From the IMG/VR virus record IMGVR_UViG_2534681774_000032, positions 1 to 33,164 of that record: 33,164 nucleotides of DNA; one strand, given 5' to 3'. The position numbers and the translations under genes are program-made. Within the stretch, counting starts at the first letter, position 1. Each line of letters opens with the position of its first letter. The notes beneath the pieces are model-generated. The model was given only the letters and a program-made list of their open reading frames with translations. It made no database searches and was not told where the DNA came from. Shown piece after piece: positions 8,132 to 9,691 of the stretch. The stretch comes from a virus (Duplodnaviria > Heunggongvirae > Uroviricota > Caudoviricetes).

Positions 8132-8499
8132 AATTGTCACAGGTAATGAAATTAAAGAGTATTGGTTCGGATATGAATTGACATTTTCGCGGCACAGAGC
8201 TAAAAATAGCCTACTTGTTGGTTTTGTGTGAAAAGCAGACATTTTGAGGCTCAGGATTTGTTATCAAATAAGACCAATACTTATCTATATTAATACACAT
8301 TAAATACTGTGCAATACATTATTGCATTTTATTAGATAAGCGATATTTAGGGAAAAGAAAAGTCATAGAAAACAGGCCGCTATTTGTTGTTGGATTTTAT
8401 AGGCTATATCTAGATTATCTTGCCACTGCGGTCTCTGTTTACCTAACAGCTTGGGCTTCTTTGCATGCAAGTTTGTAATAACAAGAGTAATCAAACGGA

Positions 8500-9531
8500 A
8501 TGTCTATTAATCCTAAACTTAAGCGTATCGCGCGACGCTATCCAGCGTTATTCCAATATGAGTCCCCCTATATGGCAAGAAAATTAATAATATTCGGCAA
8601 CGGTCTCGGTATGGCTTTAGATCCTGCTCACTTCTCCTTAGACAGAGCGTTGGAAGAAATTTGGCATCGCCCCAATTTTTTAAAAGATATCCACAAGCAA
8701 CTTATCGAGCGTTGTCTTCAGCGGCAAGGTCCACCAGAAGGAGAACATGAGTTGGATACCCTTCACCAGGCTGTCACATATTGTAAAGCTCTTGCTCAAA
8801 TTGGAGAGGGGAACGTGCATTGGCTTACTGAAGATGGACTAAACTTCCCCAAAATTACCGCCACTTATATTCACAAAGTTGCAACCAGGTTGCATAATTA
8901 CGATAAAGGTTTGCCACAAAGATTCGAAAATGCGCTTGTGGAGTTTGTAAAGAACACACACTCACATATCGCGACATTAAACTATGACAAATTATTATAC
9001 AATTCATTCATAGATAATGATATATTCAACGGGTATGATGGGGTTTTAGTTGATGGGATGCTAAGCCACGGATTTTCCTCTGCAGCGCTCGAACGGAAAT
9101 ACAATCGTAGGTTTGGTTATTATTTGCACTTGCATGGTTCACCACTATTTATTAATCAGCATGAAAATGTTTTAAAACTTTCACGCTCACAACTTACTCT
9201 TGACATAGATGAACCTAGTGAGCATATAGTGTTAACTCATATAAAAAGAAAACCGTCAGTTATAGCAGCATCTAATGTTCTTTCTACGTACTGGGATTAT
9301 TTGCAGTTTGCATTATTTGAATCAGAAGAAATAATATTGTTTGGTTACTCTGGTCTCGATATTCACCTTAACCTGCTTATTCGACCTTACCTAACCTCTA
9401 AGCCTTTAAGAGTAATTGAGTGGAGCGGTGCTGGTGAACAAAACGCTCGTGAGATATATTGGAAAAACCAGTTGAGACGGGAAGTTACTGTAATTAGGTT
9501 GGATAACATCACTGATTTTATTGATTGGTAG
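8500..9531 (+). CDS. SIR2-like (SIR2_2/ThsA-type sirtuin-fold) protein, stand-alone, 343 aa; candidate NAD-targeting defence effector
   Basis: Markedly AT-rich gene with a 370-bp AT-rich leader; motifs in typical SIR2_2 order: glycine-rich IIFGNGLGMALD near the N-terminus, TLNYDKLLY, LHLHGSPLF, ILFGYSGLDIH; no adjacent TIR, HerA, pAgo or STAND partner. Confidence 0.6.
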   Translation: MSINPKLKRIARRYPALFQYESPYMARKLIIFGNGLGMALDPAHFSLDRALEEIWHRPNFLKDIHKQLIERCLQRQGPPEGEHELDTLHQAVTYCKALAQIGEGNVHWLTEDGLNFPKITATYIHKVATRLHNYDKGLPQRFENALVEFVKNTHSHIATLNYDKLLYNSFIDNDIFNGYDGVLVDGMLSHGFSSAALERKYNRRFGYYLHLHGSPLFINQHENVLKLSRSQLTLDIDEPSEHIVLTHIKRKPSVIAASNVLSTYWDYLQFALFESEEIILFGYSGLDIHLNLLIRPYLTSKPLRVIEWSGAGEQNAREIYWKNQLRREVTVIRLDNITDFIDW

Positions 9532-9601
9532 CGCAATGCGAAGTTAAAGAGGCAGCCTCATATTTATCAGAGCTGGTGTACGTCCAATACAGGAGGTTAT
9601 C

Positions 9602-9691
9602 GTGCTGGTTCTCAAATGCGCGCTGGCTATTGCGGCTGTAGTGGCAATTTATTGTCTTGCTATTGTTCTTATGGATCGCCTTTCTGATTGA
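9602..9691 (+). CDS. Putative 29-codon hydrophobic (single transmembrane) peptide
   Basis: GTG start 5 nt after a strong AGGAGG; product VLVLKCALAIAAVVAIYCLAIVLMDRLSD; 70 bp downstream of the SIR2-like gene; below ORF-track cutoff. Confidence 0.3.
   Translation: MLVLKCALAIAAVVAIYCLAIVLMDRLSD

Follow-up and report, generated by a model that had tools for sequence, protein, structure and literature searches.

A single-gene cargo between the DUF977 gene and hokD

The DNA analyzed here (the window) is the whole 33,164-nucleotide stretch of the IMG/VR virus record IMGVR_UViG_2534681774_000032, a lambdoid (Qin/Rac-like) Escherichia prophage integrated beside yccA. In a variable slot between its replication and DUF977 genes and the toxin gene hokD lies a horizontally acquired single-gene cargo, or 'moron' (8132–9548). 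The cargo gene (8572–9531, plus strand) codes for a stand-alone SIR2-like protein of 319 amino acids, WP_000101550.1, annotated in RefSeq by the Prokaryotic Genome Annotation Pipeline (PGAP) as 'SIR2 family protein'. The insert of ~1.4 kb is AT-rich, as an earlier note made from the bare sequence had proposed, with a guanine-cytosine (GC) content of 0.34 in the leader (8132–8499) and 0.39 in the gene versus 0.52 in the remaining window.

The left flank of the slot is the DUF977 gene (7724–8131, plus strand; Pfam DUF977, 103 bits), which belongs to the backbone rather than the cargo and is found in 4,016 of 5,426 E. coli genomes. Homology with related prophages stops on this side at ~8121–8126. 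The entire 8132–9700 stretch (a 1,569-bp query) is carried by only 46 of the 5,426 complete E. coli genomes and is 100% identical in E. coli O111:H2 strain 12A; the SIR2 gene also has 100% identity in Escherichia albertii NBRC 107761. Approximately 1,300 further E. coli genomes, all lacking the SIR2 gene, match just the last 152 bp (9549–9700) at 90–95% identity. In these genomes the 152-bp segment sits exactly 354 bp before hokD, the same distance as in the window, and its upstream neighbor differs among them: a NUDIX and HAD pair, QueH or the edge of a prophage remnant (L002). Because the segment occurs at a fixed distance from hokD in genomes without SIR2, we placed the end of the SIR2 cargo at ~9548 and assigned the sequence from 9549 onward to the backbone. 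The cargo edges carry a 12-nt imperfect direct repeat (11 of 12 positions; 8148–8159, GAAATTAAAGAG, and 9540–9551, GAAGTTAAAGAG), the right copy of which spans the homology breakpoint at 9548/9549. The repeat may be a recombination footprint or may be due to chance; nothing beyond it was found among the insertion signatures sought at the island edges.

The slot between the DUF977 gene and hokD is a cargo hotspot in Qin/Rac-like prophages. Related E. coli prophages carry in it relBE (K-12 Qin; L084, 4347–4873), QueH (L089, 3919–4871), QueH together with a type II Dcm/NgoMIV restriction-modification pair, a NUDIX protein with a HAD hydrolase (L086, 4098–5404), or a second SIR2 allele that is 86% identical in DNA (L003). 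The slot cargo spans 4101–4766 in L087 and 4101–6961 in L088. As the earlier note stated, relBE does occupy the equivalent position in K-12 Qin. A methyltransferase remnant is also among the slot contents elsewhere, and the NUDIX protein weakly matches the PADLOC candidate PDC-S07 (E = 7e-10).

The SIR2 product was initially read as 343 amino acids long. An open reading frame (ORF) of that length is present (8500–9531, plus strand), with an in-frame ATG at 8500 upstream of M25; the family-wide start is M25 itself (8572; context M-x-R-K-L-I-I-F-G-N), giving the 319-residue protein of the RefSeq call. We placed the gene at 8572–9531 because the frame upstream of M25 is broken by stops within a few codons in most of 80 genomic loci, including an 82%-identical Serratia gene, because a GAG(G) Shine-Dalgarno-like motif is conserved 10–13 nt ahead of M25, and because the 24-codon extension is weakly constrained, with a ratio of nonsynonymous to synonymous substitution rates (dN/dS) of 0.4–0.6 versus 0.07–0.14 for the core. 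The start at 8500, whose frame is open in the E. coli clade only, was rejected on these grounds. Eleven metagenomic relatives were called as 343 amino acids and share the pattern R-x-x-L-R-Y-P-x-L-F in the extension; a profile of the family, made from the alignment, is 319 positions long. Residue numbers given below nevertheless follow the 343-residue numbering.

The AT-rich non-coding leader of the cargo (8132–8571, plus strand; GC 0.34) contains a sigma-70-like site (8178–8207, TTGACA-18-AAAAAT) matching 10 of 12 promoter positions and a weak GAG Shine-Dalgarno-like motif before 8572. It can be aligned along its whole length with the second E. coli allele (L003) and only over its last ~75 nt with Serratia and Klebsiella. 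These last nucleotides before M25 (8497–8571) are partially conserved in both genera even where the frame is broken. For the stretch upstream of M25, RNAalifold gave no conserved RNA structure (-1.0 kcal/mol, no covariation).

Fold and catalytic site of the SIR2 protein

The four SIR2 motifs claimed for the gene can all be read in the stated order: FGNGLG (8593–8610), TLNYD (8974–8988), HLHGS (9127–9141) and FGYSGLD (9340–9360). They contain the active-site codons of N161 (8980–8982), D163 (8986–8988) and H212 (9133–9135). These three residues, together with G282, G285 and D287, are invariant across 66 relatives sharing 57–87% identity with the protein, and G33, N34 and G35 are kept in at least 90% of them. 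The sole Pfam match of the protein is SIR2_2 (PF13289; residues 156–302, E = 1e-5), which at 26.1 bits is marginal but above the gathering threshold of 24.5 bits. All 66 relatives match the same family (best E = 2.9e-8). The PADLOC profiles Aga_SIR2 (E = 3.8e-6), PDC-S21 (E = 8e-6) and SIR2 (E = 6e-5) were matched as well, and no defense-system model in PADLOC 2.0 matches the protein as a member. Searches of NCBIfam and PHROGs returned no significant family.

An AlphaFold2 model built from the 66-sequence alignment was predicted with confidence (predicted local distance difference test, 88.5; predicted template modeling score, 0.88). The 18 best Foldseek matches of the model in the PDB were all SIR2-HerA entries (best E = 5e-11), with sirtuins behind. 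Structure comparison values were highest for SIR2 proteins of the SIR2-HerA type (Paenibacillus SIR2 8W9L, 19.4; 8YHX, 18.6; E. coli Nezha Sir2 8J4U, 17.8), followed by ThsA (14.5), KomC (14.3), the Avs5 SIR2 domain (12.2), canonical sirtuins (10–13) and FAM118B (10.8). The top match (8W9L) aligned over 276 residues, which indicates that the two proteins have in common both the Rossmann core and the helical insertion (residues 41–153). With just two cysteines (C72 and C95) and no CxxC motif, the prophage protein lacks the sirtuin zinc ribbon. As modeled, the product is a SIR2 catalytic domain only, comprising a Rossmann core and a helical lid, with neither a zinc ribbon nor a sensor domain.

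The proposal of a SIR2-fold protein is supported by a marginal profile match and a strong structural one. The protein has the features that define the superfamily: a Rossmann core for nicotinamide adenine dinucleotide (NAD), a glycine-rich loop, an Asn-x-Asp motif and a histidine. In the model, this fold and its Asn-x-Asp...His site are those of NAD+-hydrolyzing SIR2 immune effectors, the SIR2 subunits of SIR2-HerA (Nezha) being the closest. The earlier note had described the motif series as of SIR2_2/ThsA type; SIR2-HerA proteins are structurally closer than ThsA (17.8–19.4 versus 14.5).

Distribution and genomic neighborhood of the SIR2 family

We searched a family profile against 1.84 billion representative proteins (E ≤ 1e-3, clusters at 50% identity) and recovered only 362 clusters, which form a tight and discrete group of their own. 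The best 150 of the 362 cluster representatives are single-domain proteins, mostly of 310–370 amino acids and none longer than 397. Close relatives (56–88% identity) are found in Pantoea, Serratia, Citrobacter, Klebsiella, Aeromonas, Vibrio, Pseudoalteromonas, Chromohalobacter and others, with copies at 73–82% identity in Klebsiella, Serratia, Pantoea and Aeromonas. The gene is under strong purifying selection, with the low dN/dS given above for its core. Its GC content is below that of its surroundings in Klebsiella (0.38 versus 0.61), Kushneria (0.37 versus 0.60) and Pelolinea (0.33 versus 0.57), and the distribution is patchy and looks horizontally transferred. A few relatives have N-terminal extensions of 80–220 amino acids (the Vibrio proteins P0042 and P0044, with 506 and 541 amino acids, and P0061, with 402). 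The two Vibrio extensions align with each other and have no Pfam domain, and a search for the contig of P0042 gave no record; such extensions may be fused regulatory domains or miscalled starts.

Relatives of the protein occur on 18 viral contigs of IMG/VR. Seven of these, all different contigs, carry distant relatives (41–53% identity) whose neighbors look phage-like and include a DNA methyltransferase, an HNH endonuclease and functionally unassigned phage proteins. The literature search found no paper mentioning WP_000101550 or a stand-alone SIR2 protein of this type. The description of the module as 'undescribed' holds in part: no PADLOC 2.0 model claims the protein and we found no paper on it, but the RefSeq annotation as a SIR2 family protein was already available.

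To define the genomic context, ORFs were called in 78 genomic loci and their products clustered. The largest neighbor family within 6 kb was present in 4–5 of the 78 loci. No partner gene is conserved across them, recurrent adjacent genes being restricted to single clades, and the SIR2 gene is therefore regarded as stand-alone, in agreement with the earlier note. The prophage annotation likewise contains no TIR, HerA, pAgo or STAND gene, so that none of the partners of known SIR2 systems is adjacent.

Some of the neighborhoods resemble defense loci. The 82%-identical copy of Serratia plymuthica (L090) lies between a gene for a 680-amino acid protein (5812–7854) that partly matches the PADLOC candidate PDC-M36A (E = 6e-21) and has a weak AAA_16 match, and a full-length SoFic gene (10089–11165; E = 4e-119). 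These Serratia genes form a small apparent defense islet between lac genes (lacZ, lacY) and genes for LysR-type regulators. Among 141 non-redundant neighbors from 25 loci we identified matches to capP (two), DpdE/ZorD-like helicases, a reverse transcriptase, a dGTPase, type I and type III restriction enzymes and HNH nucleases, alongside integrases and housekeeping genes.

Other neighborhoods are metabolic. In three Rhodobacteraceae loci the homologue (38–43% identity) has the NAD-salvage gene pncB (nicotinate phosphoribosyltransferase, NAPRTase) immediately upstream, on the same strand and 18–44 nt away, within conserved housekeeping synteny (L071, 6688–7980; L078 and L081, 6665–7957). The synteny continues downstream of the SIR2 gene with an ArfB-like RF-1 domain protein and a Vut_1 transporter. 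A Sulfitobacter homologue adjoins thyX, and the Klebsiella copy is an orphan amid metabolic genes. In five alphaproteobacterial loci, the gene for a protein of ~200 amino acids (440 in L067) abuts or overlaps the 5' end of the SIR2-family gene (L051, 7381–8040; L060, 7445–8050; L072, 7402–8004; L077, 6362–6976; L067, 6700–8022). The protein has no Pfam match, and the L051 member, the only one scanned against PADLOC, had no match there; it may be a clade-specific partner.

Proposed function and comparison with known systems

Bacterial immunity makes repeated use of SIR2 NADases as effectors. Taken together, the fold, the conserved active site and the genomic context suggest that a defense role is likely for the SIR2 gene, which is a reasonable candidate for a minimal defense gene against phages. 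More specifically, we give an even chance to the reading that the gene is a single-gene prophage cargo encoding an NAD+ hydrolase that protects the lysogen by abortive infection. Its transcription would probably start at a promoter of its own within the AT-rich leader. In uninfected lysogens the protein would be kept inactive, perhaps with the lid blocking the pocket in a ring-shaped oligomer, as in the closest solved relative, the Paenibacillus protein PsSIR2: without HerA, PsSIR2 forms a dodecamer in which the small domain is auto-inhibitory, and HerA binding turns on its NADase (PMC11472057). A superinfecting phage would convert the SIR2 protein into an NAD+ glycohydrolase, and the resulting depletion of NAD+ would abort the infection and protect the lysogen population and the prophage. 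A less likely reading is that the 319-residue protein is a complete one-domain immune system, a SIR2 NADase with no separate sensor or partner, whose conserved lid or oligomeric state directly senses a conserved consequence of infection.

Several observations weigh against the abortive-infection reading. NADase activity, toxicity and phage protection are all predictions. The sequence links to defense SIR2 families are weak (PADLOC E of 4e-6 to 4e-4; SIR2_2 only 1.6 bits over threshold), and the PDB has no sequence match to either the single sequence or the family profile. PsSIR2 is inactive without HerA, and the prophage protein has neither a sensor domain nor a partner. The defense-gene matches among the 141 neighbors are a plain tally and not a measured enrichment. 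Furthermore, the slot also holds non-defense cargo (QueH, NUDIX/HAD), Rhodobacteraceae homologues sit in housekeeping synteny next to pncB, and the Klebsiella copy has metabolic neighbors. Finally, the protein keeps 56–88% identity across orders, and conservation reaches at least 95% in about one third of the lid columns, which is unusual for an immune gene. Such conservation, the lid included, is much higher than in phage-sensing domains of the usual kind and is easier to reconcile with a conserved substrate than with an arms race.

The conservation and the metabolic contexts lend themselves to an alternative that we consider unlikely, namely that the gene codes for an NAD+-dependent enzyme modifying proteins or small molecules (a deacylase or ADP-ribosyltransferase) with a regulatory or metabolic role, carried as cargo. 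Strong purifying selection across orders, the Rhodobacteraceae homologue located 18 nt downstream of pncB and the Klebsiella copy are all consistent with such an enzyme. So is the case of C. jejuni SliP, the sole studied protein of the loosely related DUF4917 family, which is reported to be a secreted deacetylase (PMC10421069); 41 of the 66 relatives match DUF4917 weakly (best E = 1.5e-8). However, the prophage protein itself has no DUF4917 match at E ≤ 1, it lacks the zinc ribbon, and no sirtuin-type cofactor-binding loop is seen in its sequence. The gammaproteobacterial copies, moreover, are patchy, low in GC and on mobile elements.

We consider it improbable that the gene serves the phage itself, as part of the early rightward operon in lytic growth, by remodeling host NAD metabolism, modifying a host protein or countering a host defense. 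The gene does lie between the replication genes and Q in the same orientation, without a terminator-like site from 9531 to the next ORF, and the QueH and NUDIX-HAD cargo found in the slot elsewhere resembles nucleotide or modification functions rather than defense. But tblastn found no homologue among 50,697 sequenced phage genomes (INPHARED), the viral structure library contains no close fold, most homologues are chromosomal orphans outside prophages, and the cargo gene is preceded by an AT-rich leader of its own that contains a promoter-like site.

The genes downstream of SIR2 bear on a further alternative. The backbone segment on the hokD side (9549–9700, plus strand, 152 bp) contains a hydrophobic ORF of 29 codons with a GTG start (9602–9691, plus strand) and, six bases before the GTG, the strong ribosome-binding site that the earlier note had reported (AGGAGG, 9591–9596). 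The same note had counted this ORF in the AT-rich insert, which stops before it at ~9548. RefSeq leaves the segment bare of annotation, and submitters sporadically label the ORF 'hypothetical' or 'membrane protein'. Four of the five sequences compared keep the Shine-Dalgarno motif, GTG start and length of the ORF, and its substitutions are conservative and hydrophobic (consensus MLVLKCALAI[AVT]AV[VM]AIYCL[AV][IV]VLMD[RH]LSD); dN/dS is noisy (0.35–0.5), and the five differences seen in one comparison are without exception nonsynonymous. From its sequence, it is plausible that the ORF encodes a protein, which could be an unrecognized small membrane protein or toxin tied to hokD loci.

The Hok-family toxin said to follow is part of a complete hokD/sok type I toxin-antitoxin locus (9699–10154, plus strand). 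It consists of a promoter-like site (9699–9727), a sok/hok leader (9734–9908; Rfam sok, 116.2 bits against a gathering score of 59), the coding sequence that PGAP names hokD (9903–10058; Pfam HOK_GEF, 81.6 bits) and a terminator (10127–10144) followed by a T run, and so has both the Hok/Gef ORF and the sok antisense/leader RNA of such systems. Since the promoter-like site sits just before the sok/hok match, the peptide ORF precedes the hok transcript. In other parts of the prophage, Rfam matched the small RNA STnc100 (14854–15044, 139 bits), DicF (4423–4474, 72.5 bits) and three tRNA genes (14529–14775) downstream of a DNA methyltransferase gene.

The three genes are close together on the same strand, the peptide ORF is well equipped for translation, and the divergent SIR2 allele of L003 is also trailed by a divergent peptide ORF, as would be expected if SIR2, the peptide and/or Hok made up one toxin-antitoxin-like module or a two- or three-gene defense unit. 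Their distribution rules against such a module, which we regard as extremely improbable: the peptide ORF stays with hokD in the ~1,300 genomes without SIR2, behind whatever cargo or at a remnant edge, is truncated by the cargo in L087 and is absent in K-12, where relBE abuts hokD; in 66 SIR2 loci from other taxa, the 400 nt downstream of the gene never contain a small hydrophobic ORF preceded by a Shine-Dalgarno motif; no neighbor is conserved over the 78 loci; and the hok promoter-like site is downstream of the peptide ORF. The 29-codon ORF and hok/sok are neighbors independent of SIR2, and we found no support for the variant toxin-antitoxin arrangement suggested earlier.

To our knowledge, every characterized SIR2 defense pairs SIR2 with a sensor or partner (HerA, ThsB plus SLOG, pAgo, STAND or the DSR C-terminal domain). 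The family described here, at ~320 amino acids, is a conserved SIR2 domain only, and it moves among prophages, small defense islands and chromosomal sites. Were it protective, the question would be how a bare SIR2 domain stays silent and is then triggered, and a missing model would be added to defense-annotation tools. If the one-domain immune reading were true, it would be the smallest SIR2 defense known and a SIR2-HerA-type SIR2 activated without HerA. If it is not protective, the pncB link in Rhodobacteraceae points to an unstudied family of NAD-consuming enzymes. A further SIR2 gene in a prophage hotspot is in itself unsurprising; a bare, conserved and partner-less SIR2 is a clean test case for effector control.

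Among known SIR2 proteins, canonical sirtuin deacylases (CobB/Sir2Tm type) have a zinc-binding Cys4 small domain and an acyl-lysine cleft; the prophage protein, which has no zinc ribbon, falls outside this class. Also absent are the APAZ/pAgo partner of SPARSA and the features of SIR2-STAND (Avs5). Thoeris ThsA differs in its C-terminal SLOG domain, which binds the ThsA signal and for which the prophage protein is too short; the whole chain aligns with SIR2-only structures, and no ThsB/TIR gene is nearby. DSR1 and DSR2 also encode a SIR2 effector domain in one gene but exceed ~1,000 amino acids and have a large C-terminal sensor domain. The prophage protein, with a SIR2 domain only and no match to a PADLOC DSR model, is indeed far shorter than either (319–343 amino acids).

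Single-domain SIR2-like families are closer in size. Pfam DUF4917 (PF16263; gathering threshold, 28 bits) comprises such proteins of ~320–350 amino acids, and some databases label relatives of the prophage protein 'DUF4917 family protein', although the latter falls outside the family as described above. According to the SliP paper (PMC10421069), one gene of the sliP operon has a type I restriction R subunit as its predicted product. PDC-S21, an unvalidated single-gene PADLOC candidate, matches weakly and partially (E = 8e-6; residues 26–230 against profile positions 18–210 of 336), over the N-terminal part only and with a score far under the level of family members. Thus, the prophage protein passes the general SIR2-fold test and, narrowly, that of Pfam SIR2_2, and belongs to no named PADLOC 2.0 defense system.

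The closest comparison is with SIR2-HerA (Nezha; PDB 8W9L, 8YHX, 8J4U and 8SUB). It differs from the prophage locus in its defining gene for a HerA-family ATPase/helicase that complexes with SIR2, found neither adjacent to the SIR2 gene nor in the prophage nor in the 78 homologous loci, and its SIR2 subunits, which assemble into a ring-shaped dodecamer or tetradecamer, share only 14–17% identity with the prophage protein. Yet these subunits are of like size (360–400 amino acids versus 319–343 here) and have the same architecture of a Rossmann core and a helical small domain. Furthermore, the authors of 8W9L proposed N163, D165 and H212 as the putative catalytic residues of PsSIR2 (PMC11472057), and the predicted catalytic set of the prophage protein (N161, D163 and H212) occupies nearly the same positions.

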